A stretch of DNA of 64,000 nucleotides from a virus (Duplodnaviria; Caudoviricetes), in IMG/VR virus record IMGVR_UViG_3300042465_005116, positions 96,001 through 160,000 of that record. One strand, written 5' to 3'. Both the position numbers and the translations under genes were made by a program. Under the pieces are notes generated by a model. It did no database searches. It was not told the origin of the DNA and worked only from the letters and a program-made list of their open reading frames with translations. Shown one piece after another: positions 8,143 to 45,510 of this stretch. Each line of letters starts with the position of its first letter. Position 1 is the first letter of the stretch.

Positions 8143-9300
8143 TTAATTACTTAGGGGTGCTTTAATTTTTGGATGAGATTCATATCCTATTAATTCAAAA
8201 CAATCAGGTCTATAACTTTTAAGTTTTTCATCTAAAGTTTTTTCACCTAATCTTTCTTTAACCAACTGATGTTGATACCAATTCCTTTCCGTTATTTGAA
8301 TTTTTGGTAAGTTATACGGGGTTCTACTGATTTGTTCTTTTGCCTGTTCAATATGGTTTTTATATAAATGAACATCTCCTAAGTTTCCAATCAATTCATC
8401 AGGTATCATATTCACTTCCTTTGCAATAATCTCTAATAGTAATCCATAAGAAGCAATGTTAAATGGTAATCCTAAAAATGTATCCACACTTCTTTGATTC
8501 CACATTAGGGATAGTGTCCTCTTTGGTGTTGGAGTATAATATGAATTATCAAAATCAGGTAAATTATTAGGGTCAAAGAATCGTTCCATACCTGTTTCAT
8601 AATTGTTATTGAACCAAATATTATATCGTCTCTCATCACTTAACTCATGTGTATACAATTGAAATCCATAATGACAAGGTGGTAATACCATTTGGTCTAA
8701 TTCACCTACATTCCAAGCATTAACCATTAATCTTCTACTATCTGGATTTGTTTTAAGTTCGTTGATTAGGTTTTCAATTTGGTCTATTGGTTCTTGTCTT
8801 ATACTTGTTTGATTATCTACATAAGAATCCCATCTTAAATATTCCCATTTTGAACCTAATTTGCAAGGTTCTATTTGTATTCTACCACCCCACTGTCTCC
8901 ATTGTTTACCATAGATAGGTCCTAAATCTCCCCATTGTTTAGCAAACTCATTATTGGTTTTGACCTCTTTGATAAATTCTTCTTTTGTAAGTTGTCCATC
9001 TACATCCATTGATGTTTTGGCTGCATAGTTTTTATACGCATCACCATCCCAAATATGGCAATCATAATCCAATAGGAATTTGATGTTAGTATCACCTCTT
9101 AAAAACCATAGGAGTTCGGTTACGATAGAGTTCCAATGCATCTTCTTTGTAGTAAGTAAAGGAAATCCTTCACTCATCTTATGACGTATCTGATGACCAA
9201 ATTCTGATATAGTACCAGTTCCGGTTCTATCTTTTTTCTCTACACCAAACGCAATGATATCACTAAGTAATTGTTGATACTTTTTATCTAAGGTATTCAT
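8143..9300 (-). CDS. thyA: thymidylate synthase with insertions
   Basis: DRTGTGT, GPIYGKQWR, PDSRR, LPPCHY, QRSVD.FLGLPFN, GDVHLY.NH. Confidence 0.97.
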   Translation of the reverse strand: MNTLDKKYQQLLSDIIAFGVEKKDRTGTGTISEFGHQIRHKMSEGFPLLTTKKMHWNSIVTELLWFLRGDTNIKFLLDYDCHIWDGDAYKNYAAKTSMDVDGQLTKEEFIKEVKTNNEFAKQWGDLGPIYGKQWRQWGGRIQIEPCKLGSKWEYLRWDSYVDNQTSIRQEPIDQIENLINELKTNPDSRRLMVNAWNVGELDQMVLPPCHYGFQLYTHELSDERRYNIWFNNNYETGMERFFDPNNLPDFDNSYYTPTPKRTLSLMWNQRSVDTFLGLPFNIASYGLLLEIIAKEVNMIPDELIGNLGDVHLYKNHIEQAKEQISRTPYNLPKIQITERNWYQHQLVKERLGEKTLDEKLKSYRPDCFELIGYESHPKIKAPLSN

Positions 9301-12734: not shown

Positions 12735-13388
12735 TTATTTTATATCTAAAAAATCGTATATGTGATTAGCCAATATTATATTAGAATTATTACCAATATG
12801 ATTATCATTCCATACGCCATTGGTTTCATCATTTAAGCTAGGTAAGTTTAAAGGAGTTACAAAATTTTTACCATTTATTTTTATATTTCTAGCATCATCA
12901 ATTATCTTTATAATAAAGGGGGGTGTCCAATATAATGCATAGCATTTTATACCATAGTTTTCTAAAAAATTAAATAGAGAATAAACTTTTTTCATTTCAT
13001 ACCAACTTCTACGTTCTTCAAATTTTTCAAAATAAGTTAAAATTGCAACACGGTCTTCTAATGGGATATCAATAGTATCTAATACATCATGGGTATGTAC
13101 AGCTAAATCTTTCCAACCCACATTATTTTCATCAAACCTTAAATACGCATTTTGAAAAAATTGAAATTGAAAAATAACTATCTTACCATTATTAATAATG
13201 GATTGTAAATTATCAATAAAAATTTGAATATTGTTTACAAGATTACTACCCGGTATACCTAAATTTGTATACTCTGAATTTAATAGGTTAGATAAATAAT
13301 GAGGATATGGGTTATACTCATATTTTTCTTTGATTGGATTTGAATGTGATATTCCGGCGGTGTGAGAATCACCTATATAATAAATCAT
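12735..13388 (-). CDS. SGNH-like hydrolase/acyltransferase
   Basis: IGDSHTAG, LGIPGSN, C-terminal DNH. Confidence 0.6.
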   Translation of the reverse strand: MIYYIGDSHTAGISHSNPIKEKYEYNPYPHYLSNLLNSEYTNLGIPGSNLVNNIQIFIDNLQSIINNGKIVIFQFQFFQNAYLRFDENNVGWKDLAVHTHDVLDTIDIPLEDRVAILTYFEKFEERRSWYEMKKVYSLFNFLENYGIKCYALYWTPPFIIKIIDDARNIKINGKNFVTPLNLPSLNDETNGVWNDNHIGNNSNIILANHIYDFLDIK

Positions 13389-13399
13389 TAAGTTAAAAA

Positions 13400-13798
13400 T
13401 TATCTATTGTATAATTTATTTATTATATGAGTTGAACTAAAGCCTTCCATCTTAGGGAAATATACGATTTCACCTACATATTCACTCCCTACAATTCGTT
13501 TACCCCTATATTCTTCTCCAATAACCATAATGGCCGGTCTCATTGTTTTAATGTGGGTTTCCAATTGTTCATCCGAATCAAATATTACAACTCTATCAAC
13601 ATATTTGATAGCTTCTAATAAGGTGATTCTACTTACAATATTATTTATAGGTCGTTGTTCTCCTTTTAATTCGGTAACCCTCTTGTCACCATCAACTCCA
13701 ACAATTAGGAAATCCCCTAACTCTGCTGCCCTCTTTAATAATTGAATGTGTCCTAAATGAACAATATCAAATGTACCATTTACCCAAACTTTTATCAT
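13400..13798 (-). CDS. cytidylyl/adenylyltransferase (HldE/RfaE domain II-like)
   Basis: NGTFDIVHLGH, KGEQRPIN, FSSTHII. Confidence 0.88.
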   Translation of the reverse strand: MIKVWVNGTFDIVHLGHIQLLKRAAELGDFLIVGVDGDKRVTELKGEQRPINNIVSRITLLEAIKYVDRVVIFDSDEQLETHIKTMRPAIMVIGEEYRGKRIVGSEYVGEIVYFPKMEGFSSTHIINKLYNR

Positions 13799-14169
13799 AA
13801 CAAATCATTTGGCGTTTTTCTATAAATTCTGTATGAATCCGAATCAAAATGTTCAGTACTTACCTCATATACAACTCCCCTTTCTTGTAAAGAAGTAAGT
13901 TGGTGTGGTGTACCTTTTTCAATATAAACTGAATCGCCTTCGTTTAAGATTTCTTTTTTTATTATACCGATTTTAGTATCAATCCATTTGAACTCAAATT
14001 GTCCATCTTGAATATACCACGATTCGTTTTTAAGCATATGGTAATGCATTGAAAACTTATCACCCTTTTCTGCGAAAACTAAAAGTTTACCACAATATTG
14101 TGCATCGTTATGAACCCATAGTTCATATCCCCACGACTTTTGTACTTTTGTTGGTCTTGTTATTATCAT
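13795..14169 (-). CDS. cupin (sugar isomerase-like)
   Basis: KSWGYE, FSMHYH..K.ESW, PHQL, EVSTEHFDSDSYR; likely start MIITRP at 14169. Confidence 0.75.
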   Translation of the reverse strand: MIITRPTKVQKSWGYELWVHNDAQYCGKLLVFAEKGDKFSMHYHMLKNESWYIQDGQFEFKWIDTKIGIIKKEILNEGDSVYIEKGTPHQLTSLQERGVVYEVSTEHFDSDSYRIYRKTPNDLL

Positions 14170-14489
14170 ACTGCGAAAGATTCTCCACACCCACATGTAC
14201 GGGATGCATTTGGGTTTATAAATTCAAATCCCTTACCATTCAATCCATCTGAGAAATTTAATTCTGTTCCGTAAAGATATAATAATGATTTGTTGTCTAC
14301 TAAAATTTTTACTCCTTTATCTTCTGCAAGATTATCTCCTGCACGTTGGTCGGTATCAAATGAAAGGTCGTATGACAATCCACTACATCCACCACCTTTA
14401 ATTGAAACTCTAACAAACGGAGTTTTAAATCCACTTTCTTCAATGAGTGAACTTAATTTTTTAGCTGCGGTTTCTGATACTGTTACCAT
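14166..14489 (-). CDS. iscA: Fe-S cluster assembly A-type carrier
   Basis: GGGCSGLSY and NPNA..TCGCGESF. Confidence 0.95.
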   Translation of the reverse strand: MVTVSETAAKKLSSLIEESGFKTPFVRVSIKGGGCSGLSYDLSFDTDQRAGDNLAEDKGVKILVDNKSLLYLYGTELNFSDGLNGKGFEFINPNASRTCGCGESFAV

Positions 14490-15948: not shown

Positions 15949-16605
15949 TTAAATAAGTTTTGATTTAGTAATCAATTCTGAATAAGGTTTCCAATTATCT
16001 CCTTTTCTAATTATTGAATAGGGTTTCCAATTCACTCCCATTTGAATATATTGTAACTCTGCATTACATCTATTTGTAATATCAACATTACTTATGTCTA
16101 TTGTTTTAGCGTATTGTCCAGTCATCCACCAAAAATTACCAGAGTACATTATATTTGTAGGGTTACTTGCTACTTCTAATAAAAAACCATATGTGTTAAA
16201 AACTTCATTATCCAAAATTCCAAATACGTTATCAATATATTGAATATTATGTAATTGCATTACATTTCTCCATCGGATAGATTCAGAATCGGTTTGTTTA
16301 GATGCCCCCTTTGTGTGTAGATAAAAAATATAATCATTATTATTAAATGATGATTTATCTCTTTCTATTAAATTTAAAGTTACAAACTCATTATTCATTA
16401 ATTTAGTATCACCAATTATAATTTTTGAATCATACTCATACATTAATTTGATTATATCGTCTACTGAATTATTATTTTCTGATATTGAGATGCCAATAGT
16501 TAATGAGTATGGTTGATTAATATATTTTTTTATTAATGCAAGTTGTTCATGTATTATAGATTCAACCCCCTCTATTGCATAGATGTGATAATATATCCGT
16601 ATCAT
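15949..16605 (-). CDS. glycosyltransferase-like protein
   Basis: IYYHIY, YIFYLHTKG, YSGNFWW pattern; family assignment tentative. Confidence 0.45.
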   Translation of the reverse strand: MIRIYYHIYAIEGVESIIHEQLALIKKYINQPYSLTIGISISENNNSVDDIIKLMYEYDSKIIIGDTKLMNNEFVTLNLIERDKSSFNNNDYIFYLHTKGASKQTDSESIRWRNVMQLHNIQYIDNVFGILDNEVFNTYGFLLEVASNPTNIMYSGNFWWMTGQYAKTIDISNVDITNRCNAELQYIQMGVNWKPYSIIRKGDNWKPYSELITKSKLI

Positions 16606-17648
16606 ATTAAATTCGTATGGGTAGTATCAATAAATTCGTATAGGTTATGAAATAGATTTGTATTTCTACCTATCTTATTAAATTCTTTTTTAAATAATTC
16701 ATGTTCTGGGTGATTAGAATCCCAAACTTGTTTTAATTTAAATTCCGCTTCAGAAAATGTTCCCCAATTAGTTATTTTACCAAAAAAAACATTTACCTTT
16801 TTGCCAAAAATAGAATACATTATATTATAAAAGGTTTCCATTTCCATATAGTTACTATCTTGAACAACAAACGAAGTCTTTACCGATTTTAATGTTTTTA
16901 TTGTAGAAATAAAATTTAAATTATTTATTAAAGTATCCCATTTACCACCTAATCTGGTTTTATTTTCATAGGTGTCACGTGTTCCGGCATCTATTGATAT
17001 CTCACAAGATGTTACATACTTATGCACATTTGGCATACTATCCCACATTTCTTTTGTCCACATTGATGCGTTTGTGTGGAAATGTATTCTTGTTAATTTT
17101 GGATATTTTTTTGGATTAAAATTTCTTAAATAATTTCTAAAACTAACCGAAACAAATGGGTCGCCTGTCCCCGTGATGTACAAAGTTTTAACGTTTGCTG
17201 AATAGTAGGTATCAATTTCATCTATTGTTTTTTCTATTCGTTCTATTCCTTTACTGCTTTCAACAATTAAATCTACTCTGCACGATGGACATTTATAATT
17301 ACAAGTCCTATCAAAATTCATTATAACATTAGTCGGTGTATTTGGTTCAACGATTGGAGTTGTATACTTTGAATTTGATTTTAAAGTAATTGGACCAGAT
17401 ACTACACTATCTGATAATAATTTACTTAAATATGGACATAATTCTTTGTTACAATATTTAAATGAACCATCTAATATAGAATTTCTAATATCAATGATTG
17501 GTTCACTATTATATACATCTTTTAAAGGATACTCACTAAGTTCTATTTTATTTGGCAACCAGGATGGACAACAAACAAACCCAACATTATTATGTATTTC
17601 TAAAGTAGTAAATGGAGTACTACAGGTGTATTGTTTTAAATCTATCAT
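16602..17648 (-). CDS. radical SAM protein with N-terminal SPASM/twitch-like domain
   Basis: C..PF...CC...YC....CP, then CNYKCPSC, TGTGDPF, ISIDAG. Confidence 0.88.
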   Translation of the reverse strand: MIDLKQYTCSTPFTTLEIHNNVGFVCCPSWLPNKIELSEYPLKDVYNSEPIIDIRNSILDGSFKYCNKELCPYLSKLLSDSVVSGPITLKSNSKYTTPIVEPNTPTNVIMNFDRTCNYKCPSCRVDLIVESSKGIERIEKTIDEIDTYYSANVKTLYITGTGDPFVSVSFRNYLRNFNPKKYPKLTRIHFHTNASMWTKEMWDSMPNVHKYVTSCEISIDAGTRDTYENKTRLGGKWDTLINNLNFISTIKTLKSVKTSFVVQDSNYMEMETFYNIMYSIFGKKVNVFFGKITNWGTFSEAEFKLKQVWDSNHPEHELFKKEFNKIGRNTNLFHNLYEFIDTTHTNLI

Positions 17649-18139
17649 AATAATTTTTCGATATTACTTCTACTTCCCTTGCGTAATCTATCTGAATGGG
17701 TTCTATCATATATATCTTCGTAATAAGTAATTGGTATATTAAGTTTAAATGCCAATTCGTTCAAATCATTATTCCATTTTAAAATATCATTATAACATAA
17801 TTCAAATATATCAGACGGAACTTCTTCGTAGTAATATGGATTATTTGAATTATAGTTTTTTGTTTTTGAAAAATAAGTTTGGTATGCATGAGATTCTGCA
17901 CATTCTAATATATTTTTTCTAGATAATAATATTACTCTATCGAACTCCTTACTTAATTGAAAATTGTTTGGATGATGACATATTATTGTTTTGAGGATTA
18001 CATTCTTTTCACCATTATATTGAACTCTACCACTTCCATCAAATGGTTCAAATAACGGAGTTAATCCATTTTCTTTTGCTAATTTATGTAACAAAGAAGT
18101 CGAACCGGTTCTGGGTAATGCAATTATTAATATACTCAT
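17645..18139 (-). CDS. sulfotransferase-like P-loop protein
   Basis: IALPRTGSTSL (PAPS 5'-PSB-like), FEPF, LSRKN, TYYEDI. Confidence 0.65.
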   Translation of the reverse strand: MSILIIALPRTGSTSLLHKLAKENGLTPLFEPFDGSGRVQYNGEKNVILKTIICHHPNNFQLSKEFDRVILLSRKNILECAESHAYQTYFSKTKNYNSNNPYYYEEVPSDIFELCYNDILKWNNDLNELAFKLNIPITYYEDIYDRTHSDRLRKGSRSNIEKLL

Positions 18140-18654
18140 ATGATATTAAATTTTGCTTTCTTTTTAGAAAACCATATTATCAATACATCTCGTTCCCCAC
18201 TAATTATCTTTTTTACCTCGTGGGATTCACTACCGCCGTTAAACACAACATAATCTCCTTCATTTTTTAATGATACGTTTTTATCATTTATATACATTTC
18301 ACCACCTGTAAAATCAGATGATAATAGGATACTAATCGTCTTATGTGTTGTAAATCTATCTTTATGTTTTTTAGCATAACCATTTTCACCATATATCAAT
18401 CTATGCATTATATATAAGTTATCAATTGGTTCTTCAAATTTATTACAAATAAATTCATTTAAATTTTTATTTTCTAAAGTATATACCCAACTATTATTTG
18501 GAAAAAGAGAAACACCTTCATCTTTTTTAAGATGGGTTGCAAAATACAATTGAGGGTGGGATGCTTTTATGTATGCTAAGTCTTCCTCATTCATTATTCT
18601 AGTAGTACTTAATTCTGATTTTAAAAAAAGTAAATCTTCTGTTGATAATTTCAT
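18136..18654 (-). CDS. 2OG-Fe(II) oxygenase
   Basis: HKD, FTGGE, HEVKKI..GER. Confidence 0.8.
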   Translation of the reverse strand: MKLSTEDLLFLKSELSTTRIMNEEDLAYIKASHPQLYFATHLKKDEGVSLFPNNSWVYTLENKNLNEFICNKFEEPIDNLYIMHRLIYGENGYAKKHKDRFTTHKTISILLSSDFTGGEMYINDKNVSLKNEGDYVVFNGGSESHEVKKIISGERDVLIIWFSKKKAKFNII

Positions 18655-19283
18655 ATAAGTTTATTTTTTTTATTTTCAAATTCTACAACCAATTCGTCTA
18701 TATTTAAAAATTGGTGGAGTTTAAGATAAAAATCATAACAACCTTTTGAACCGGGATGCCAATCTATCGGGTCACCACCTTCATCTGCTATAGAAGTTAC
18801 TTTTATTAATTCTACAAACTCCTTTGTCTTTTCATAAAAATCATCGTTCCATGTTACAAAGATTGGTTCATATTTTTTATAAAAATATTTTAATTTTTTA
18901 ATAAATAATATTTCAGAATCCCTATCCCCATTATGCCAATGTTCAGTTTCTTTGACCCTTAGTTCTAATAGTTTTTTAGCAAACGATTTATCACTATACC
19001 ATTCCCAATTTAAATATTTTAAGTTGTGATTTGTATCTCTTTCCCCAAAATATCTTCGTGGGAATCTGCCGGGTGCGGTAAATACTATAACTAATCTATC
19101 GCCTTCTACATAATTTGGTATATTTCCAGTTTGATATAATATAGAATTATTGTCAGACCCAAATTTTCCCAATTTAATAACATTATAATGATTAGATAAA
19201 TAATCTGTCCAATGTATTTCTGGTAAATCCCAATCTACAAAACTATCACCACAAATGTATATGTTATTTTTTTTATTTGACAC
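18651..19283 (-). CDS. SGNH-like protein
   Basis: ICGDSF, LGKFGSDN, DWHP. Confidence 0.65.
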   Translation of the reverse strand: MSNKKNNIYICGDSFVDWDLPEIHWTDYLSNHYNVIKLGKFGSDNNSILYQTGNIPNYVEGDRLVIVFTAPGRFPRRYFGERDTNHNLKYLNWEWYSDKSFAKKLLELRVKETEHWHNGDRDSEILFIKKLKYFYKKYEPIFVTWNDDFYEKTKEFVELIKVTSIADEGGDPIDWHPGSKGCYDFYLKLHQFLNIDELVVEFENKKNKLI

Positions 19284-19813
19284 TATATAATAGTTTTATT
19301 TGTTGGGCTATTTCCTTTTCTTAATCGGCCGGGCCCATTTAAATCAAATATATCTTCGTAATATGTTATAGGTATATTAATACTTTTAGAAATAAATTCT
19401 AAATCAGTATGATACGAAAGAACTTGTTCATATCTCCATTGGTCATGTGGAGTAGTCTTCCAAAGATAATTTTCATAAAACATAAATTTTTTCATATCAT
19501 GATAATAATTTAAATAAGCCCAACTTTCTCCACACGCTTTTAAATCTTTTCTTGATAATAAAATAACTTCATCAAATTCTTTTGTTAAATTTATTAACCA
19601 CTCAATCCTATCTTCTTGTTTAATTTCATCCAAACTTTGAAAAACAAGTGTTTTAACTACAATATTATTTTCGTTAGAATTATATCTTTCAATACCAATG
19701 CTTAGTGGATTAAATGGTTCAAATAAATATTTTTTTATATTGTATTTTTTTCTCATCGTTTCCCCTAAACTCGTAGAACCTGTTCTCGGTAATGCAATTA
19801 TTAAAATTTTCAT
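19283..19813 (-). CDS. sulfotransferase-like P-loop protein (paralog of 17645-18139)
   Basis: IALPRTGSTSL, FEPF, LSRKD, TYYEDI. Confidence 0.65.
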   Translation of the reverse strand: MKILIIALPRTGSTSLGETMRKKYNIKKYLFEPFNPLSIGIERYNSNENNIVVKTLVFQSLDEIKQEDRIEWLINLTKEFDEVILLSRKDLKACGESWAYLNYYHDMKKFMFYENYLWKTTPHDQWRYEQVLSYHTDLEFISKSINIPITYYEDIFDLNGPGRLRKGNSPTNKTII

Positions 19814-20376
19814 AACAATGTTTTATTAGATTTTAATTTAGGATAATCAAAATCAGTTTCCGTCATCCAAATATTTAATGCGTAACGCGTACCACTTACA
19901 ACTGGTAGTACTCCATGATAAGTAGTCGAACCATTAAATGATATGGAATCTCCTAATTTCAAATCGGATAGTGTTAATCCATTTAATGTTTCAAAATGAT
20001 AAGGAGGATTCACATCTTCGGTTAAAGCAAATTGACCCCCTTCAAAATTATCAGAAAGAACAATTACTGTGGTTAATTCACTTGATTTATCCTTATGTAG
20101 ATTAAGATATCTACCATCATAATATGAAGTTAGACTGATATTAAAATTCTTTAAATTAAATGATAGGTAATCAAACCATAATTTAAAGTTTCCGTTTTTA
20201 TAATTATCGGTTAATAAATTAATTATTCTTTTTTTAAATTCTTCATCATACATTCTTCTACAATCCCAATGTTCGGTTGGACTATATGAAAAGGGTTCAC
20301 CAAATTTAAGACAAAAATCAATTATATCATTGGCAGTTTCTCTATTACAAAAATTATTATTTATGGTATAATTCAT
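19810..20376 (-). CDS. 2OG-Fe(II) oxygenase
   Basis: LHKD, FEGG, HGVLPV.SGTRY. Confidence 0.82.
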   Translation of the reverse strand: MNYTINNNFCNRETANDIIDFCLKFGEPFSYSPTEHWDCRRMYDEEFKKRIINLLTDNYKNGNFKLWFDYLSFNLKNFNISLTSYYDGRYLNLHKDKSSELTTVIVLSDNFEGGQFALTEDVNPPYHFETLNGLTLSDLKLGDSISFNGSTTYHGVLPVVSGTRYALNIWMTETDFDYPKLKSNKTLL

Positions 20377-21194
20377 AATAGATGCGAATTTTTTGGTTTA
20401 GTATGTGTTAATAAATTACCTTCACTTATAAATTTATATAATTCATCGGCAATTAATTTATATCCATTATTACTTGGATGTTTACCTGCGGTAGTACTTA
20501 TCCAATTATTACCATCCTCCCATACATCTTTTCTATTGGTATCAATTAATAAATTTGCCATTGTTTTAGTTTGATAACCCCAATATTTATCACTCTCGAT
20601 TAAATTGGTTTTATCAACTAACTTATGAATATTTTTATTAATCATTATATCAAACGCGTCACAAAAAAGATATCTGATTCCTAATTCTTTAAATATAAAT
20701 TGAAGATGTAAAATATAGTTTTGATTCACTATATCATAGTAAGTATCATTGAATAAATTACCTATGTAATAATCTCTAAAATTTTTTTCCGCCCTATTAT
20801 AGTTTATATTATCACTATTAACTCCATCAAAAATATACTTTAAAAGGTGTTCTTTACTTTTATATCGTTTGCCCCATATAAAAAAATCATCTTTGGTTGG
20901 GAAAAAAGGTAACGGGTCTCTTAGAGAAGATGACCACATAATAACAACAAAATCATCTTGAGTGATGATTTCATTTTTTAACTGATAAGATACTGCGTTA
21001 AATATTGCATTATTTGAGAATGCACCAACTCCATTATTTTTAACTTCACATTTTAATAGTTCTGATAAGTGTTTCGGCCAACAATATTTTTGTCTTATTA
21101 TTGTCCTTTGTTCTGGATTATCAGTAGTATATTCATCTTCAATATTTCCACCAACCCCCTCAGTCCAACTATCCCCAAAGGTAAACAATTTCAT
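20373..21194 (-). CDS. SGNH-like protein
   Basis: FGDSWTEG, NGVGAFSN, HPSNNGY. Confidence 0.68.
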   Translation of the reverse strand: MKLFTFGDSWTEGVGGNIEDEYTTDNPEQRTIIRQKYCWPKHLSELLKCEVKNNGVGAFSNNAIFNAVSYQLKNEIITQDDFVVIMWSSSLRDPLPFFPTKDDFFIWGKRYKSKEHLLKYIFDGVNSDNINYNRAEKNFRDYYIGNLFNDTYYDIVNQNYILHLQFIFKELGIRYLFCDAFDIMINKNIHKLVDKTNLIESDKYWGYQTKTMANLLIDTNRKDVWEDGNNWISTTAGKHPSNNGYKLIADELYKFISEGNLLTHTKPKNSHLL

Positions 21195-21205
21195 AATGCA
21201 TAATA

Positions 21206-21349
21206 TTAAAGATGTGTTTCTTTAATTTTAGCTACAACTGCTTGAAATGCAGATGCTATTTTTGTTTTAACATCGGTTGATAAAGAACCAATAACCGGTT
21301 TAATAACGGTAAGTGGTCTTTCTTCTTTAATTTTTGGTGTCTTTGCCAT
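21206..21349 (-). CDS. 47-aa basic peptide
   Basis: MAKTPKIKEERPLTVIKPVIGSLSTDVKTKIASAFQAVVAKIKETHL*; not in ORF track. Confidence 0.55.
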   Translation of the reverse strand: MAKTPKIKEERPLTVIKPVIGSLSTDVKTKIASAFQAVVAKIKETHL

Positions 21350-21379
21350 AATATTTTTTTATTTTAATTTTTATTTTAA

Positions 21380-22867
21380 TTAAAGTTTAGGTGGGAGCCC
21401 TTGATTACAAACCGGACACCAGCTACTACAAGGACCAGACCCGCAATAATAACTACCACATCCCCAACAACCATTATGCATCACACTAAATACTCCATCT
21501 CCTATATCCGCTAAAAATAAATCACCTGGTTCAAAGTCTAATGAATATATTGTTTTATATTCAAACACCATTTCTAATCCAGTAATTTCAATGGTTGTTA
21601 ATTCATTTGTATTTATATCGGTTACAACTAATTTATCGCCAATATATAAACTATTTACTTTTTCAAATCTAGTTGCGGTTGAATCTTTTTCTTCAATATA
21701 ATACACACATGATGGAGTATCACTCCAAGTTTTACCATCTGCAAGTGTTATCTGTATCATTACCGTTTCAACTGATGCAGATACCATTGCCGTTAATTCG
21801 GATTGTAATGATGTTAAGGTATCGTTTGATTGCTGTAGTGTACTATCCCATCCATATGTCACTATTTCATTTGTAAAAGCTTTAGCTTCATTTTCATTTG
21901 AATCTATAAAATTTATAGAACGAACATGGTCACCTAATTGTATAGTACTAACATTTGTTAATGAACCATCATAGTTTAGGATATTTGAATCATCATCGGT
22001 ATGGTAATCGTTCTCAGTTTTACCTATTTCCTTTGTAATATATTTATATCTTGTTTTTTGATTTAATTTTTTGGTGCCAGTAACAAATTCATCAGCGGTA
22101 AACGAAACTGGTATTATTGAAGATTGAGTGTATCCACCCATATTAATAATATCTAAATTTGAACCATATATAATATCAATTCCTCTTATAATTGAGTATC
22201 TACCGTCTACCAAATTATCCTCTGAAAATATGAATTCTTGTATTAAATAATTACTTTCCGTTAAATTTATGGTATCAACTAATTCAGTATTATTTGAAAC
22301 TGTATATAATGCAGGATATTGTGTTTTATCGTACTGAGGATAACGATATTTTATTAATATGTTTGGATTTGTGGTAGTAGTATAATCTACTTCATCTAAT
22401 GTATTTAAATTTAATGTATCAGATGTATAATTCGTTTTTGGAATATACCCCGAATCTTTCATTAAATTAAAAAATTCAAATTTATCAGCACAATACGTTT
22501 CATCCACTAATGCGGTTGTATCAAACGCCTGTCTTAAAATAAATTTAGTATCAGTATCTTCTATAAATGGTACAGTAACCGAACCTTGCGGTACAGCATG
22601 GTCAATATATGTTATATTATTTTCTACACATTTTTCTTGTAATATTTTTTTAAATCTATTTGGTTGATTTAAGGGTTTGTGTGAATCGCCTTCTGTCCAT
22701 ATATAATGGAACTCAGTAATATTATTACTACTTAACATATTGAATAACGTAGTATAATCTAATAAATCTGCACCATCATTATAAATTGTGGTATTTGTGT
22801 TTATTTCTAAAAACTTAACCGAATTATTTTTTTGTAGATAATCACTACCAATTATTGTTGCTTTCAT
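21380..22867 (-). CDS. circularly permuted ATP-grasp-like domain + Hint domain + Cys-rich C-terminal peptide
   Basis: N-terminal D..KFLEINTN, ILIK, YLIQEFI; Hint-like DGSLTNVSTIQLGDHV...IYSLDFE...VMHN; tail with six Cys. Confidence 0.65.
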   Translation of the reverse strand: MKATIIGSDYLQKNNSVKFLEINTNTTIYNDGADLLDYTTLFNMLSSNNITEFHYIWTEGDSHKPLNQPNRFKKILQEKCVENNITYIDHAVPQGSVTVPFIEDTDTKFILRQAFDTTALVDETYCADKFEFFNLMKDSGYIPKTNYTSDTLNLNTLDEVDYTTTTNPNILIKYRYPQYDKTQYPALYTVSNNTELVDTINLTESNYLIQEFIFSEDNLVDGRYSIIRGIDIIYGSNLDIINMGGYTQSSIIPVSFTADEFVTGTKKLNQKTRYKYITKEIGKTENDYHTDDDSNILNYDGSLTNVSTIQLGDHVRSINFIDSNENEAKAFTNEIVTYGWDSTLQQSNDTLTSLQSELTAMVSASVETVMIQITLADGKTWSDTPSCVYYIEEKDSTATRFEKVNSLYIGDKLVVTDINTNELTTIEITGLEMVFEYKTIYSLDFEPGDLFLADIGDGVFSVMHNGCWGCGSYYCGSGPCSSWCPVCNQGLPPKL

Positions 22868-22931
22868 AAATATTTTATTTATTTCTTCTGAATGTATCTA
22901 TAAATATATTAAAATTGAATTTAAGACCATT

Positions 22932-23234
22932 TTAAATGATGGTGGGATTTTTTTTAATTTCTAGAGGTTCTAAATAGTTAGAATCAACTTCATTCCATTT
23001 TTTTAATCCACATGCATTATAAGTTGTTGAAAATACTTTTTTATTCAATGGACACCCACATTCACCACAATATGCACTCCATTTTATTCCCTTTATTACT
23101 TCCTTTCTATAATCACATCCTAAACAAACATCAAGTCTTAATTTAGCTAATTCCTCTTGTTGAATATTTGGGTTGTATGAAATTTTCCAAGCTTCAAATA
23201 TTTCTTTATAATTAATCTTAGGTATAAGGGGCAT
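22932..23234 (-). CDS. small Cys-rich metal-binding protein
   Basis: CLGC, CGECGC, C..KKW. Confidence 0.65.
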   Translation of the reverse strand: MPLIPKINYKEIFEAWKISYNPNIQQEELAKLRLDVCLGCDYRKEVIKGIKWSAYCGECGCPLNKKVFSTTYNACGLKKWNEVDSNYLEPLEIKKNPTII

Positions 23235-23235
23235 A

Positions 23236-23973
23236 TTATATTAATGTTTTATTATTTTTTTGAATATCGTAATAATCATAAATATCGTTATATTTTTTTA
23301 TAAACTCATCATTTAATTTTAATTCACATTCAAAGTGTTGACTTCCGTTTGATTTTTCCATTTTAAATGGTTTACCGGTTTTATTAGATACCCATTCCTC
23401 TAATTCTCCAAAATTTCCAAATTCAAACCATTTTATTCTTTTGTTATTATTATGCCAATATGATACCGGCCGGAATAAAATTAATAAAATATTTTCCATA
23501 TAATCATCAACATACTTTTCTATTCCATTTCTTTTTGTAAATTCTTTAATTACTAACATTTGAGAAGTTGGTGAGATTAAATCTAAATCTTTAAAAAATA
23601 ATATATCATCTATATTTAATTTTTTAAGTACATTTACTAATTCGGTTGGATATTTTATACGTTCCATTTCGACCAAATCAATTATATGTTTCCACAATGA
23701 AATGAATCGTTCATATCTATTTCTTTTAATTGTTATAATGTCATATTCATTTCCAAATTTGGTAATCAAACCATTTAATGATTCATGACTATGTACCATA
23801 TAATCGGCCAACTCCTCATTACTCATAGATAAATCTATTCTACTCTTCCATTTATTAATGAATTTTTGGTCAAGATATTTTATATCAAATTCACTTCTTA
23901 AACATGATATATAAAAAGAAGTTGATGCACATCTTGGTAATGAAATAAATAAAAATTTATTCTCTACTAACAC
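23236..23973 (-). CDS. sulfotransferase-family-like protein
   Basis: LFISLPRCASTS, RNRYERFISLW. Confidence 0.6.
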   Translation of the reverse strand: MLVENKFLFISLPRCASTSFYISCLRSEFDIKYLDQKFINKWKSRIDLSMSNEELADYMVHSHESLNGLITKFGNEYDIITIKRNRYERFISLWKHIIDLVEMERIKYPTELVNVLKKLNIDDILFFKDLDLISPTSQMLVIKEFTKRNGIEKYVDDYMENILLILFRPVSYWHNNNKRIKWFEFGNFGELEEWVSNKTGKPFKMEKSNGSQHFECELKLNDEFIKKYNDIYDYYDIQKNNKTLI

Positions 23974-24611
23974 TATATTAACGATTTTTGGTTTTTAATA
24001 AAATCAAATCCAACATTACCTGCCATAACAATTCTATCTAACGTTGAATTTGATGCAGCATTTGGAGAATGTGGAACATCTGCCTTCATTATAATTAAAT
24101 CATCTTCTTCTGGTCTTATCCAATATTCCTTATCTTCTTTTGATTTAAAATATAAAACACCGTCATCACCATTCATTATATCTGGCATTTGAATGTAATA
24201 AACGTATGTATAGTGTGGAATAAAGTCTTTATTTTTTTTATTAATTTCGGTATGTATATGATATTTTTCATCAGTATAAAAATTTTCTTGTACAGGATTT
24301 TTAGAACGAACTACATTTACCCAAGCATCTGTATTAATCTTATTATAATTTATACCGATTTCATTATAAATTTCTTTACATTTATTAATACCAATTTGAA
24401 CAATTTCATCCAATTTTGTTTCTACCTTAATATCACCAATAAAATTTAAATGTTCATTCCATTCTTTTTTATAACCAAACCCATCAGTTTTAACATTAGG
24501 CTGGGATTCTATAATAGAATATGCCTCTTTTAAAAACAATTGTTTATCACTTATTCGATTTAATTTTACTTTCCAAATATAAGTTGTCTCATCAAAAAAT
24601 ATCTTTTCCAT
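23973..24611 (-). CDS. 2OG-Fe(II) oxygenase-like
   Basis: WVNV, HIH, YVYY, PHSP...RIV.AGN. Confidence 0.7.
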   Translation of the reverse strand: MEKIFFDETTYIWKVKLNRISDKQLFLKEAYSIIESQPNVKTDGFGYKKEWNEHLNFIGDIKVETKLDEIVQIGINKCKEIYNEIGINYNKINTDAWVNVVRSKNPVQENFYTDEKYHIHTEINKKNKDFIPHYTYVYYIQMPDIMNGDDGVLYFKSKEDKEYWIRPEEDDLIIMKADVPHSPNAASNSTLDRIVMAGNVGFDFIKNQKSLI

Positions 24612-24617
24612 ATTATA

Positions 24618-25253
24618 TTAATTTAGTTTTTTATAAAATATATCAGCTAATTCTTTATGACCTACTTCAGAAAAATGGGCATCGTTAATTACGCCATTAG
24701 TTTCATCTTGTAATCTATTTAATAAAGTTCCCACATACCAATCTGTTGGTAGTAATTGTTTTTTAAGATGAACATCAGTACATAAAGCAAAGGGTGACCA
24801 AAAAATAACTTTAATGCCTTTTAATTTAAATATAGTACTAAGTAATTTAGACCAATTAACTATTTCATCCCAATATAACCTACTCATCCTATTAATCCGA
24901 ATTTGCTCTAATGTATTTGTATCAATAAATTTATGTAATTCTAATTCAGATTGTACATGTCGAATAGTAACCCATTTGTTATTTTTTTCTAATCGAAATC
25001 GGGAAGGATGTGACCAACCTATTATAACAATATCACCACTATTTATCGTGTCCATTTTAGTAATAATAGTGTCAAATATAGTATTATTATCTGCACCTCC
25101 AACACCTAGTTGAATAACATCAGTATTTAACATGATTGCTAAATGGTCTGAAAATATTTTTGGGGTATAACCTTTCCATTCACTATATTGTTTACCCAAC
25201 CCACCTTGTTTTTCCCATGTTGTGGAAAATGAATCACCAAATACCCAAATCAT
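24618..25253 (-). CDS. SGNH-like protein
   Basis: VFGDSFS, GVGGADN, DAHFSEVGH. Confidence 0.68.
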   Translation of the reverse strand: MIWVFGDSFSTTWEKQGGLGKQYSEWKGYTPKIFSDHLAIMLNTDVIQLGVGGADNNTIFDTIITKMDTINSGDIVIIGWSHPSRFRLEKNNKWVTIRHVQSELELHKFIDTNTLEQIRINRMSRLYWDEIVNWSKLLSTIFKLKGIKVIFWSPFALCTDVHLKKQLLPTDWYVGTLLNRLQDETNGVINDAHFSEVGHKELADIFYKKLN

Positions 25254-25813
25254 AAAAGATTTTGTTTTGTTGAATTAGTTTTAACTAATGATATCCAATT
25301 TACTAATGAATATCTAATGCCGGCTCTGATGGGAGTTACCCTATGTGTTAATCTCGAATTAAAAATATATAATGTTCCAATTTTATTTTCTATTGGTACT
25401 AACTCACCTTTAAGGTTTTTAATTTCTAATACACCACCTTCATATGAATTATTTAATTGAATTACTATCGATGTAAATCTATCTCTATATATAGTATCGG
25501 TACTATCGACATGCCAATCAAAATATTCACCTTCTTTATATTCAGTAAATTGAAAATCTCCCAAACCAGTAACTTCCATTCCATTTATATTGAAAGTTTC
25601 TCTTAATTTATTTGTTAATCTTTCATTTAAAAATCCTAAATCAGATATCCAAGCAACCGATGATTTTCTAGTTTTTTTAGTAGGTATGGTATTAGAATCA
25701 CCGGTATATACTTCTGCATCTGATAATGTTAATTCTTTTTTGCAATTATTTAAAATGAAATCACACTCTTCGGGTGATAGAAAGTTTTCAAATATGTCTA
25801 TATTGTCAATCAT
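25250..25813 (-). CDS. 2OG-Fe(II) oxygenase (prolyl-4-hydroxylase-like)
   Basis: WHVD, YEGG.L, HRVTPI..G.RYSLVNW. Confidence 0.88.
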   Translation of the reverse strand: MIDNIDIFENFLSPEECDFILNNCKKELTLSDAEVYTGDSNTIPTKKTRKSSVAWISDLGFLNERLTNKLRETFNINGMEVTGLGDFQFTEYKEGEYFDWHVDSTDTIYRDRFTSIVIQLNNSYEGGVLEIKNLKGELVPIENKIGTLYIFNSRLTHRVTPIRAGIRYSLVNWISLVKTNSTKQNLL

Positions 25814-25835: not shown

Positions 25836-25866
25836 AAAAAAGGGTCACCTTTTGATGATGACCCTT
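25836..25866 (-). terminator. intrinsic terminator
   Basis: AAGGGTCA...TGACCCTT hairpin with T tract, after Hsp20. Confidence 0.7.
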
Positions 25867-27392: not shown

Positions 27393-27985
27393 TCTAAAAC
27401 TATATTGATTTGTTTAGTAATTTTTGCTTCAATCATTGTACATTTTAAACGTAGGGTATCCCCTCTCATTTTATTAACCGGTGCAATCATTGTGTTTATC
27501 TCACCATTCGTTCCACTATATGATGCTGGATTGCAAGTAGGTATTAGTACATCTCTCCAATTCGTAAGTGGTGGTAAGTTTACATAAGTAAGTTGACCGG
27601 TAAATTCATTGATGTAGGTTTTAGTAATCTTTGCTACAACATCATCTTTCCATAACCACCAATATAAATTACTTTCCCATTCAACTTTAATTGGTTCTTT
27701 GGTATTTTTGAGAGTACCAGTAACCCTATGTGTTGTTTGGTTTGTATTTGGATTTAATTGTAAATGATAATACCCATTCGCATCTTGTGGTAATCGACCA
27801 TCTAATGTAAAATCATTCGGATTATAAGTAACCTTTGTGGGTGTGGTATTTGTTTTTGTTTGAACATCCGGTCCCCATTTTGAAATAGGAGTGGGTATAT
27901 CATCTTTACTGCAAGCAGTAAATAATAAAGAACTTAATACTAACCATTTGATTCTCATAACAATTTGTTTAAGATTGATTCCCAA
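27389..27985 (-). CDS. lipoprotein
   Basis: LLFTAC-SKDD lipobox-like signal; start probably MRIKWL. Confidence 0.6.
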   Translation of the reverse strand: MGINLKQIVMRIKWLVLSSLLFTACSKDDIPTPISKWGPDVQTKTNTTPTKVTYNPNDFTLDGRLPQDANGYYHLQLNPNTNQTTHRVTGTLKNTKEPIKVEWESNLYWWLWKDDVVAKITKTYINEFTGQLTYVNLPPLTNWRDVLIPTCNPASYSGTNGEINTMIAPVNKMRGDTLRLKCTMIEAKITKQINIVLE

Positions 27986-28440
27986 GTCGGATATTCATTC
28001 CATTCTTTTGTTTCATATGCCCAACCAAATTTAAGTAACTCACCTTTGAACTCTCCTGCCCCATTCTTAATTCGGTCATCAATTAGATAATCACCTGCCA
28101 AAAGGTCTTTTCGGTGAGTAACAACCATTTTTTTGTGAAAGAGATTTCCAAAGTGATTCTCAATCCAATATCGTTTGTCAGTTGAAGCATCAGGGTTTCC
28201 CCACGGTGCTGCAGTTGCGATAAACATTTCATACTTACCACTTTCGGCCAACTTCTTAACAGCCTCAATAGCTCCTTCATATGGAGGTGGGTTTCGGAAT
28301 ATACCGGGAATATGGTCAGGACATTTTTTGTATTTATCAACTAAGTGTGGGTGGAGTTCAAACCACTTGTCAAACTCGGCTTTTAAATCTACTAAAACGC
28401 CATCCATGTCAATGTAAAGTATCTTTTTATTTTCAGTCAT
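27955..28440 (-). CDS. 5'(3')-deoxyribonucleotidase (HAD)
   Basis: IDMDGVL, IATAAPW, DYLIDD. Confidence 0.9.
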   Translation of the reverse strand: MTENKKILYIDMDGVLVDLKAEFDKWFELHPHLVDKYKKCPDHIPGIFRNPPPYEGAIEAVKKLAESGKYEMFIATAAPWGNPDASTDKRYWIENHFGNLFHKKMVVTHRKDLLAGDYLIDDRIKNGAGEFKGELLKFGWAYETKEWNEYPTWESILNKLL

Positions 28441-44367: not shown

Positions 44368-45510
44368 TTAAATTAAAGCCCTTGTTTGTTTTGATTCTAA
44401 ATGCCAAAAATTATGTATTATATGTTGTCTATTACCAATCATTTTTAATTGTTTTAATAATACATTATATAGTGGATGTGATTCTTCTTGAACTGAACGG
44501 TCTTTTAACCATTCTTTTGTTTGATGATTCCAATCTTGTATTGCTCTAAATGTAATTGTATATCCATTTTCAGGACTCCACTTTCCATATATATCCTCAA
44601 TCATATTTACAAAATCATTCATTTCACGTACATTATGGTCTTGAACTACGAATGAAAAATTTCTATTATTAAATTTTAAGGTAGAATGATATTTTAAATT
44701 AGCCATTAAAGTATCCCAATTCCCATTTAACCTTACTTTATTTTCATATGTTTCTTTAGTTGCTGCATCAATTGATATTTCATATTCACGAACATATGGA
44801 TGAATTGGTTTAACCGATTCCCACATTTCCTGTGTCCACATATTTCCGTTTGAAACTATATAAATTTGTTTCAATTTTGGATATCGTTTGTAATCAAATG
44901 TTTGCATAAACTTTCTAAATACATTTGAATAAAATGGGTCACCACTACCTGTAATATGAATCATCTCAACCTCATTACTAAATTGTTCATTAATATCTTT
45001 TAAAATATTATCAACAAATTTATCTTTACGATTTGGTATAGTATCTAATCTACAAGATGGACATTTCAAATTACATGCGTAATCAAAATTAAAATAAATT
45101 AATTTTGGAAATAATTTCCATTCACTATCAGTTTCAGAAAGATTATATTTTTTAAAAAATTCTTCTCTCTTATAAAAGTATCCAAAATATACTGATTGTC
45201 CATAGTCCGATTCAAACTCATTTAATAATACCTTTTCATCAGTATTAATAAGTTTAGATAAAAATGGGCACTTAGTTTTTGAACAATATTTATATGAACC
45301 ATCTAAGATTCCTTCTCTTACCTTTGTATTAATATCATTAAACCAAACATCTTTTAATTCTTTAGTTTCACCGGGATTTAAATGAGACCAATCTTCAAAT
45401 GGAATATCCATCCAATCTGGACAACAACTCCAAGTCGAATTATGGAATACCATAAAATCTTCAAATGGTGCTCTACAAATATAGTTTTTTAAATTAACCT
45501 TCTCACTCAT
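44368..45510 (-). CDS. radical SAM protein with SPASM-like domain (paralog of 16602-17648)
   Basis: CRAPF..CCP..YC..KCP; CNLKCPSC; ITGSGDPF; ISIDAA. Confidence 0.88.
   Translation of the reverse strand: MSEKVNLKNYICRAPFEDFMVFHNSTWSCCPDWMDIPFEDWSHLNPGETKELKDVWFNDINTKVREGILDGSYKYCSKTKCPFLSKLINTDEKVLLNEFESDYGQSVYFGYFYKREEFFKKYNLSETDSEWKLFPKLIYFNFDYACNLKCPSCRLDTIPNRKDKFVDNILKDINEQFSNEVEMIHITGSGDPFYSNVFRKFMQTFDYKRYPKLKQIYIVSNGNMWTQEMWESVKPIHPYVREYEISIDAATKETYENKVRLNGNWDTLMANLKYHSTLKFNNRNFSFVVQDHNVREMNDFVNMIEDIYGKWSPENGYTITFRAIQDWNHQTKEWLKDRSVQEESHPLYNVLLKQLKMIGNRQHIIHNFWHLESKQTRALI

Follow-up and report, generated by a model that had tools for sequence, protein, structure and literature searches.

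A variable, translationally coupled enzyme island around a Hint-domain protein in a large uncultured phage, and its possible role in combinatorial peptide tailoring

Tandem oxygenase arrays and the island of the window

Synechococcus phage Syn9 carries ten adjacent dioxygenases in a tandem array, and bacterial gene neighbourhoods join 2-oxoglutarate (2OG) oxygenases with Trp halogenases and sulfotransferases, for which a role in peptide or secondary-metabolite modification has been predicted (Iyer et al. 2010, PMC2938197). The block of genes analysed here occupies positions 15949-25813 of the window, a 64,000-nt stretch of viral DNA (positions 96,001 to 160,000 of IMG/VR record IMGVR_UViG_3300042465_005116), and resembles these systems as a phage-borne array of divergent 2OG oxygenases, associated with halogenase and sulfotransferase-like (ST-like) genes, whose proposed tailoring role is read from its context. 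In contrast to them, it is centred on a conserved Hint-domain protein with a Cys-rich tail, and it adds SGNH-like genes and a minimal ST-like family; it is a variant of the tandem 2OG array theme to which a defined anchor protein has been added. In the reading preferred here, to which we assign a probability of about 0.5, the block is a hypervariable, translationally coupled island whose enzymes form a combinatorial tailoring set for the six-Cys tail that the anchor protein's Hint domain would release.

Clusters for peptides made on ribosomes and then modified post-translationally (RiPPs), including the large-leader type built on nitrile hydratase-like leader peptides (NHLP), likewise place a hypervariable C-terminal core on a large conserved N-terminal part, beside oxygenase, halogenase and radical SAM genes. 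However, the 'leader' of the island would be an enzyme-like domain followed by a predicted self-cleaving Hint domain, with no separate protease and no recognised RiPP recognition element (RRE), the comparison being one of gene context. Large phages also contain hyperplastic regions and 'moron' cassettes, and as in these, whole genes of the island are gained, lost and replaced between conserved flanks at the strain level; the island differs in that its exchange is in register, at coupled junctions with a ~20-nt motif, and is restricted in its enzyme families. Full-text literature searches yielded no description of the anchor protein family or of the cluster, a megablast search with the whole block found no cultured relative, and a tblastn search of 50,697 GenBank phage records with the anchor protein, the second ST-like protein and the second SGNH-like protein found no match.

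All 14 open reading frames (ORFs) of the block lie on the minus strand, with the order and coordinates of the original prediction, which saw in them three repeats of one SGNH > 2OG oxygenase > sulfotransferase triplet, each acting as a module on a different site of a shared substrate. In what follows, S denotes an SGNH-like protein, O a 2OG oxygenase, T an ST-like protein (T1, T2 and T3 are the same genes as ST1, ST2 and ST3), C the Cys protein, R the radical SAM protein and B the anchor protein. In transcription order, the block reads 2OG, [SGNH, 2OG, ST], Cys protein, B (ATP-grasp-like/Hint), 47-aa ORF, [SGNH, 2OG, ST] twice, radical SAM and a 218-aa protein, and the junctions between its genes are mostly overlaps of 1-4 nt that set start on stop. 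Shuffling of the 13 island genes yields three S-O-T triplets at a frequency of 1.2e-4.

Single-gene cassettes and their junctions

A sibling phage, L057, has flanking proteins that are 92-99.8% identical to those of the window, and its island reads B-S2-O2-S3-O3-T'-R-G, that is, S-O-S-O-T', from which the window differs by three whole-gene events. First, ST2, which lies between O2 and S3 in the window, is missing from L057; the crossover falls inside a ~20-nt motif, AATAAAAC.TT.TTATA, which precedes the start codon and ends both O2 and ST2. Second, a 217-aa T' of L057 is exchanged for the ST3 of the window, the replaced stretch running from the ATG precisely up to where R starts. Third, relative to L057, a fourth SGNH-like gene is inserted precisely between a 132-aa gene and UvdE. 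Further, locus L050 differs from L008 by an insertion of S3-O3, placed precisely after the stop of O2 and before the ATG of T.

Almost every island protein has the ending K/N-x-[LI]-[LI], where the DNA runs through an A-rich and then a T-rich stretch before the next ATG, and ...TTATGA overlaps are frequent at island gene junctions; similar C-terminal endings occur on genes outside the island (...NKLL at 27955-28440; also 13795-14196). The endings arise because the junction motif, as the next gene's initiation region, is translated, and judged from the DNA beneath them they are a translational-coupling context and no protein tag. Together, the exact junction boundaries and the shared motif indicate that the island evolves by in-register cassette exchange, where the junction motif would supply the microhomology at cassette indels. 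The order in the window derives from an S-O-S-O-T arrangement that recently gained ST2 and had one ST swapped; its three triplets show this shuffling in a recent and probably passing state, with no repeated ancestral unit.

IMG/VR scans seeded with ST2/ST3, S3 and B yielded 163 loci, whose genes were called as longest ORFs and classified with family hidden Markov models (HMMs); the architecture and adjacency counts include related loci and are therefore not phylogenetically independent. The prevailing architecture, O-(O)-T1-C-B-(47-aa ORF)-S-O-T, often has R after it. Where B has three or more genes downstream (97 distinct architectures), 41 go on with S-O-T, 12 with S-O-S(-O-T) and ~15 with O-T and no S, and a few run R-T-S or R-O-S-T; the S2-O2 pair follows B in the 41+12, and 'O T1 C' stands upstream of B in 63 architectures. 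Overall, the recurrent features are the adjacency of S to O and of O to T and the core O-T1-Cys-B-(47-aa ORF)-S-O-T. In particular, S has O as its next gene in 55 of 84 cases, and T or T1 has O before it in 74 of 98, where ~28 are expected for each, and none of 5000 within-island shuffles reaches either count, so that the non-random gene order expected by the original prediction does recur in relatives. O1 orthologues lie directly before T1 in most relatives, and O3 lies directly after S3 in most loci found with S3. In addition, relatives carry a Trp halogenase gene (E 2.6e-86) before O1-T1 and the gene of a SET-domain protein between two T genes; the loci of the island extras (halogenase, SET and a GT4-FkbM gene discussed below) are L001:3498-4739, L026:6910-7317 and L008:13183-15909.

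The triplet itself did not survive as a repeated unit, either of function or of descent. The trees and the split of the ST families rule out that one triplet gave rise to three paralogous copies: S1, S2, S3 and the fourth SGNH-like protein form four separate clades (SH-aLRT 98-100), each with orthologues in other phages, and those of the S1 clade occur in other gene contexts; T2 and T3 are separate sub-lineages, again each with orthologues in other phages; and ST1 has only the 15-residue P-loop (phosphosulfate-binding loop) in common with ST2/ST3, which by this comparison are an unrelated ST-like family. Moreover, across ~150 related architectures, a single S-O-T triplet is seen in 60 and two triplets in none, and three are confined to the window; L057 and the lineages with R-T-S or R-O-S-T depart from the triplet order, and S3-O3 also occurs with neither T nor B in an RNA-repair operon. 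A recent tandem duplication of DNA was likewise rejected, in agreement with the original prediction, which had called the members divergent: no duplication was found across the block, except for two patches of 38-42 nt with 86-89% identity between ST2 and ST3. These patches (17705-17742 / 19343-19380, 38 nt; 18099-18140 / 19773-19814, 42 nt) are the P-loop and the NIPITYYED motif of genes that elsewhere are just 41% identical as proteins, and they could reflect strong constraint or local gene conversion.

The anchor protein and the enzyme families around it

B is the most conserved gene of the island; in the protein library, its family forms 272 clusters at 50% identity. The modelled Hint domain of B superimposes on 144 of the 146 residues of 6tyy with an rmsd of 2.3, and a Z of at least 8 is reached by more than 90 chains. 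As in hedgehog, intein and bacterial intein-like (BIL) Hint domains, the fold matches over the whole domain (Z 15-16) and the terminal His-Asn falls on the intein C-terminus; residue 289 of the model pairs with intein residue 1, and residue 465 with the terminal intein Asn. Unlike inteins, B has a His at position 1 (in a nearly invariant Tyr288-His289), in place of a Cys/Ser/Thr nucleophile, and its invariant His464-Asn465 is followed by a variable +1 residue, with Cys usually at +2. With His at position 1, no N-terminal acyl shift is expected, and this His and the variable +1 residue make splicing and N-terminal cleavage unlikely; by established intein chemistry, only C-terminal cleavage by Asn cyclisation is plausible.

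The tails of the B family are 26-41 residues long, hypervariable and rich in W, Y, P and S, and they have six (sometimes eight) Cys and a single Lys, which in most lies close to the C-terminus. In the wider family (P0002-P0148; L014:8167-9861), a second, Cys1-bearing Hint with an HNK(K) end comes after the Cys-rich segment in some variants, 2-3 tandem Hints take the place of the Cys segment in others, and still others end in an SDxxLKxNI...VDYxKIDVEFKKIN domain that resembles, by motif only, the Peptidase_S74 intramolecular chaperone. A Cys-rich segment bracketed by self-cleaving modules argues for its release. The N-domain of B (residues 1-288) matches YjfC and YgiC in Foldseek (2.5e-6 and 2.3e-5) with template modelling (TM) scores of just 0.26-0.36, and its invariant polar residues (E21-x-N23, R112, D122 and K173) suggest an enzyme. 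The 47-aa ORF, which is kept after B in nearly all relatives, has no family match.

Three of the block's 2OG oxygenases (Oa, O2 and O3) exceed the gathering cut-off of the prolyl 4-hydroxylase (P4H)-like model PF13640, which is 27 bits, and O1 is slightly under it. The HxD/E...H iron triad is kept in all four aligned copies (HVD..H..R in Oa, HKD..H..R in O2 and in O3, HTE..H..R in O1), and the basic 2OG-binding residue is present.

The SGNH-like proteins are recognised as a family. Taken singly, the window copies are weak, with Lipase_GDSL E-values of 0.003-0.05, below the Pfam cut-offs, and no Pfam match for S3; however, 8-10 of the 19 S family members match GDSL (Lipase_GDSL, GDSL_2) or DUF6071 models (best 1e-7), and a family HMM built without the window members recovers S1 at 9e-35. 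Block I reads FGDS in S1, FGDS in S2 and CGDS in S3, with no change of G, D or S in 18-19 family members and 12 S3-type sequences; the block III Asn (N61 / N45) and the block V His (H239 / H176) are invariant or nearly so, and the block II Gly is conserved. In S1 and S3, an Asp stands two residues ahead of this His, as DxH instead of the usual DxxH, and S2 has no such Asp. These features support S1, S2 and S3 as SGNH-like at the family level; a search of the PDB with the SGNH family profile gave no significant match, its weak matches including an acetyl xylan esterase.

In T1, the segments PRCASTSF, HxH (family consensus HGH) and RxxxERFxS align with PKTASTSF, HGH and RDPIERLVS of heparan sulfate 2-O-sulfotransferase (HS2ST), which are its 5'-phosphosulfate-binding (5'-PSB) loop, catalytic His and 3'-phosphate-binding (3'-PB) segment. 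Atlas places T1 at 0.96 to viral Sulfotransfer_2 clusters, where 23 of 30 matches are PF03567 clusters, and none of the 17 members of its family has a Pfam match. ST2 and ST3 belong to a family of 164-176 aa, about two thirds the size of known sulfotransferases. The closest structure to the ST2 model is the Stf0 sulfotransferase (rmsd 3.9, 148 residues aligned), TPST scores Z 7.4-7.5, and a Foldseek search with the model found nothing at E < 1e-3. The family loop is LPRTGSTSL, with R10, G12, R88 and S97 invariant in 28 members and no GK[ST], and one of the 28 members touches Pfam sulfotransferase models (E ~1e-3). Like Stf0, TPST and the CurM/olefin-synthase sulfotransferase, ST2 has a PSB-like PRTGSTS that lacks the Walker lysine, an Arg...Ser 3'-PB-like pair and an invariant Glu32 that could be a base. 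The lysine-free loop and the Arg88/Ser97 pair favour a sulfotransferase-like reading, and ATP-dependent P-loop kinases are unlikely, as the Walker lysine is missing in 28 of 28 members, although the fold alone is compatible with either. We therefore favour ST2/ST3 as a minimal family of the sulfotransferase/P-loop-kinase fold, predicted to be sulfotransferase-like. No cellular relative was confirmed in a low-sensitivity search of one genome per prokaryote species with a single peptide pattern.

R is confirmed as a radical SAM protein by its CNYKCPSC motif (CxxxCxxC) and its match to the NCBIfam model N_Twi_rSAM (1.8e-15), its PF04055 score being 28.3 bits against a cut-off of 29.5. It was rejected as a SPASM-type thioether maturase: the C-terminal Cys cluster is missing, and SPASM families match weakly and partially. 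A second radical SAM gene (44368-45510, minus strand), near the tRNA array, encodes a protein that is 36% identical to R (E 3e-74) and has an N-terminal twitch-like match. The 218-aa protein, formerly called 'GT-like', finds no support as a glycosyltransferase, with no match in Pfam, PHROG or NCBIfam and viral DUF8361 clusters in Atlas. Thus, the family calls of the original prediction stood for the oxygenases, the SGNH-like proteins at the family level, ST1 and the radical SAM protein; they failed for the 218-aa protein, and ST2/ST3 became a separate minimal family.

Table 1. Coordinates of the island's features and of two features beside it, with the evidence for each.
Feature	Position	Strand	Evidence
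Terminator-like hairpin	25840..25866	-	10-bp stem, then T run; between hsp20 and the island; only strong terminator
Oa, 2OG-Fe(II) oxygenase (P4H-like), first island gene	25250..25813	-	PF13640 E 4.5e-14, 53.6 bits; HVD...H...R
S1, SGNH-like	24618..25253	-	Lipase_GDSL E 0.05 alone; FGDS, GGxDNN, DAH motifs
O1, divergent 2OG-like oxygenase, HxE variant	23973..24611	-	PF13640 E 1.8e-4, 22.8 bits, under cut-off
T1, Sulfotransfer_2-like	23236..23973	-	Family profile vs heparan sulfate 2-O-sulfotransferase E 2e-3
C, 100-aa Cys-rich protein, always just upstream of B	22932..23234	-	phrog_13558 E 3e-7
B, anchor: ATP-grasp-like N-domain, Hint, six-Cys tail	21380..22867	-	AlphaFold2 (AF2) model; Foldseek and VIA searches
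Hint domain of B, residues 289-465	21473..22003	-	VIA Z 15.8 to hedgehog Hint 6tyy
Hypervariable 30-aa tail of B	21383..21472	-	Six Cys, one Lys near C-terminus; pLDDT < 50
47-aa ORF directly after B	21206..21349	-	Consensus ERPxxTIK...PLS..K.K...AFQ.VV..IK.KHL
S2, SGNH-like	20373..21194	-	DUF6071 E 2e-4, Lipase_GDSL E 3e-3
O2, 2OG-Fe(II) oxygenase	19810..20376	-	PF13640 E 1.8e-8, 35.7 bits
T2, minimal sulfotransferase-like; cassette not in sibling phage L057	19283..19813	-	Model pLDDT 88; Stf0 Z 9.3
S3, SGNH-like	18651..19283	-	hhalign to S family 98.6%, E 8e-16, 184 columns; GDS, G42, N45, D174xH176 invariant
O3, 2OG-Fe(II) oxygenase	18136..18654	-	PF13640 E 1.6e-6, 29.4 bits
T3, minimal sulfotransferase-like; 217-aa T' in its slot in L057	17645..18139	-	41% identical to T2
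R, radical SAM, N-terminal Cys motif	16602..17648	-	PF04055 E 2.4e-6; N_Twi_rSAM E 1.8e-15
218-aa DUF8361-like protein	15949..16605	-	Atlas 0.99 to viral DUF8361 clusters
Fourth SGNH-like gene, outside block	12735..13388	-	S-family HMM 2.5e-11; Lipase_GDSL_2 E 1.5e-3

The surrounding window has a G+C content of ~30%, and its 24 tRNA genes and tmRNA, together with genes for a thymidylate-synthase homologue, a carbamoyltransferase, UvdE and an RNA ligase, indicate that it belongs to a large phage; related IMG/VR contigs reach 334 kb. The closest matches of the window's helicase are in crAss-like, Bacteroides and Cellulophaga phages (34-38% identity), and gene starts in the window lack a Shine-Dalgarno sequence and are preceded by A-rich then T-rich stretches. 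The host of this large uncultured phage family is probably a member of the Bacteroidota, which the helicase and the start context fit without proving. The thymidylate-synthase homologue (8143-9300, minus strand) aligns 385 aa end to end on a 266-position profile, implying ~120 extra residues.

What the island may tailor

The preferred reading combines a fixed core (C, B and the 47-aa ORF) with a variable shell of single-gene cassettes that encode P4H-like 2OG oxygenases, SGNH-like proteins, two unrelated ST-like families and a radical SAM protein; in relatives, Trp halogenase and SET-domain genes fill the same slots, and cassettes are gained, lost and swapped exactly at gene junctions. Cyclisation of Asn465 would release the tail, the oxygenases would hydroxylate it, the ST-like enzymes would sulfate the hydroxyl groups and the SGNH-like enzymes would transfer or remove acyl groups, so that different cassette sets would lead to different decorated peptides. 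A peptide or protein substrate is plausible, as pointed to by the P4H-like model PF13640, the halogenase and SET neighbours and the W/Y/P/S-rich tails; Trp halogenases and SET-domain proteins act on amino-acid side chains.

Several observations weigh against this reading. The ATP-grasp assignment of the N-domain comes from weak Foldseek matches alone (7uk6 2.5e-6, TM ~0.3), a search of its profile against the PDB found nothing, and no sequence-level support for an ATP-grasp was found in Pfam, NCBIfam or the PDB. The match of the ST2 fold to Stf0 is statistically tied with one to shikimate kinase (Z 9.3 vs 8.9), and Sulfotransfer_2 enzymes, which T1 resembles, are mainly carbohydrate sulfotransferases. 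The adjacency counts reflect few independent events, essentially the old pairs S2-O2, S3-O3, O-T1 and O-T, which persist across deep divergence, and no link between B tail composition and cassette set was found by eye. In several relatives, a family 4 glycosyltransferase fused to an FkbM methyltransferase (GT4-FkbM) adjoins the island. Finally, at 7 loci an S3-O3 pair with overlapping starts lies between the genes of an Rnl1-type RNA ligase and a cyclic-phosphate-processing receiver protein (cREC_REC). On a 333,612-bp contig, the coupled operon (L080:4048-10022) runs ClpB-like AAA ATPase, AAA_33 kinase, Rnl1-type RNA ligase, S3-type SGNH, O3-type 2OG and cREC_REC, which looks like an RNA-repair cluster that includes an S-O pair; on the same 333-kb contig, this pair is 140 kb from a B island, so that S3-O3 does not need an adjacent B.

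An unlikely alternative is that the enzymes tailor a carbohydrate or another polymer that is not a peptide, for example a capsule or a glycan of the virion or cell surface; the SGNH-like proteins would then be O-acyl esterases or transferases, the ST-like proteins would sulfate carbohydrates and B would be an unrelated neighbour. The resemblance of T1 to heparan sulfate 2-O-sulfotransferase and Sulfotransfer_2, the acetyl xylan esterase among the weak SGNH matches, the GT4-FkbM fusion and the carbamoyltransferase elsewhere in the window are all consistent with it. However, more than 90 architectures keep B, C and the 47-aa ORF as an unvarying island centre, the oxygenases match a P4H-like model, Trp halogenase and SET genes take the same slots, and by Pfam the block in the window has no gene for sugar-nucleotide synthesis or glycosyltransfer.

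It is about as unlikely that the genes have no shared substrate at all, and that a hyperplastic region collected independent accessory genes whose order reflects insertion at junctions and the inheritance of a few old pairs. This would account for single genes being gained, lost and swapped at the strain level, for a triple-triplet order confined to the window, for the R-T-S and R-O-S-T orders of other lineages, for S3-O3 inserted in an RNA-repair operon and for a fourth SGNH-like gene inserted 3 kb outside the block. Yet the same three kinds of enzyme stand beside B across B proteins that are just 28-80% identical, and both ST-like families, unrelated as they are, have an oxygenase before them (74/98), which is hard to explain without functional coupling and is the best argument for it.

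A bolder extension of the peptide reading, which we consider distinctly improbable, is a new type of combinatorial peptide maturation, where a precursor fused to a Hint 'self-protease' and an ATP-grasp-like ligase would acquire thioether cross-links without a lanthipeptide dehydratase. In this variant, pairs of oxygenase and ST would install and then activate hydroxyls, with sulfate as the leaving group (the logic of the CurM/olefin-synthase sulfotransferase-thioesterase, ST-TE), the six tail cysteines would attack the resulting electrophilic sites, and the junction motif would be a built-in recombination joint for strain-level reshuffling of the tailoring set. Least credible of all is a role of SGNH-2OG pairs on RNA, in tRNA repair or modification, with only the ST-like genes and others serving B: the 7 RNA-ligase loci, with AAA_33 kinase and ClpB-like ATPase genes coupled upstream, and the 24 tRNA genes of the phage would suit it, but these loci are from one lineage only, the other S3 loci with resolved flanks all have S3-O3 in a B island, O3 matches the P4H-like model with no AlkB model among its Pfam matches, and cassette insertion at any coupled junction gives the same picture.

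Among the accessory genes of large aquatic phages that lack an explanation, 2OG oxygenase arrays rank with the commonest, and the island ties one such array to a candidate substrate, the hypervariable Cys-rich tail that B would release from itself. Moreover, it shows, at nucleotide resolution, how sibling phages exchange single enzyme genes in register. Should the peptide model fail, these cassette mechanics still explain the modular look of the block, and they advise caution against reading regularity of gene order as a functional unit. If the peptide model is true, the mode of release would be one not found described for ribosomal peptides, and phages would make diversifying decorated peptides during infection.

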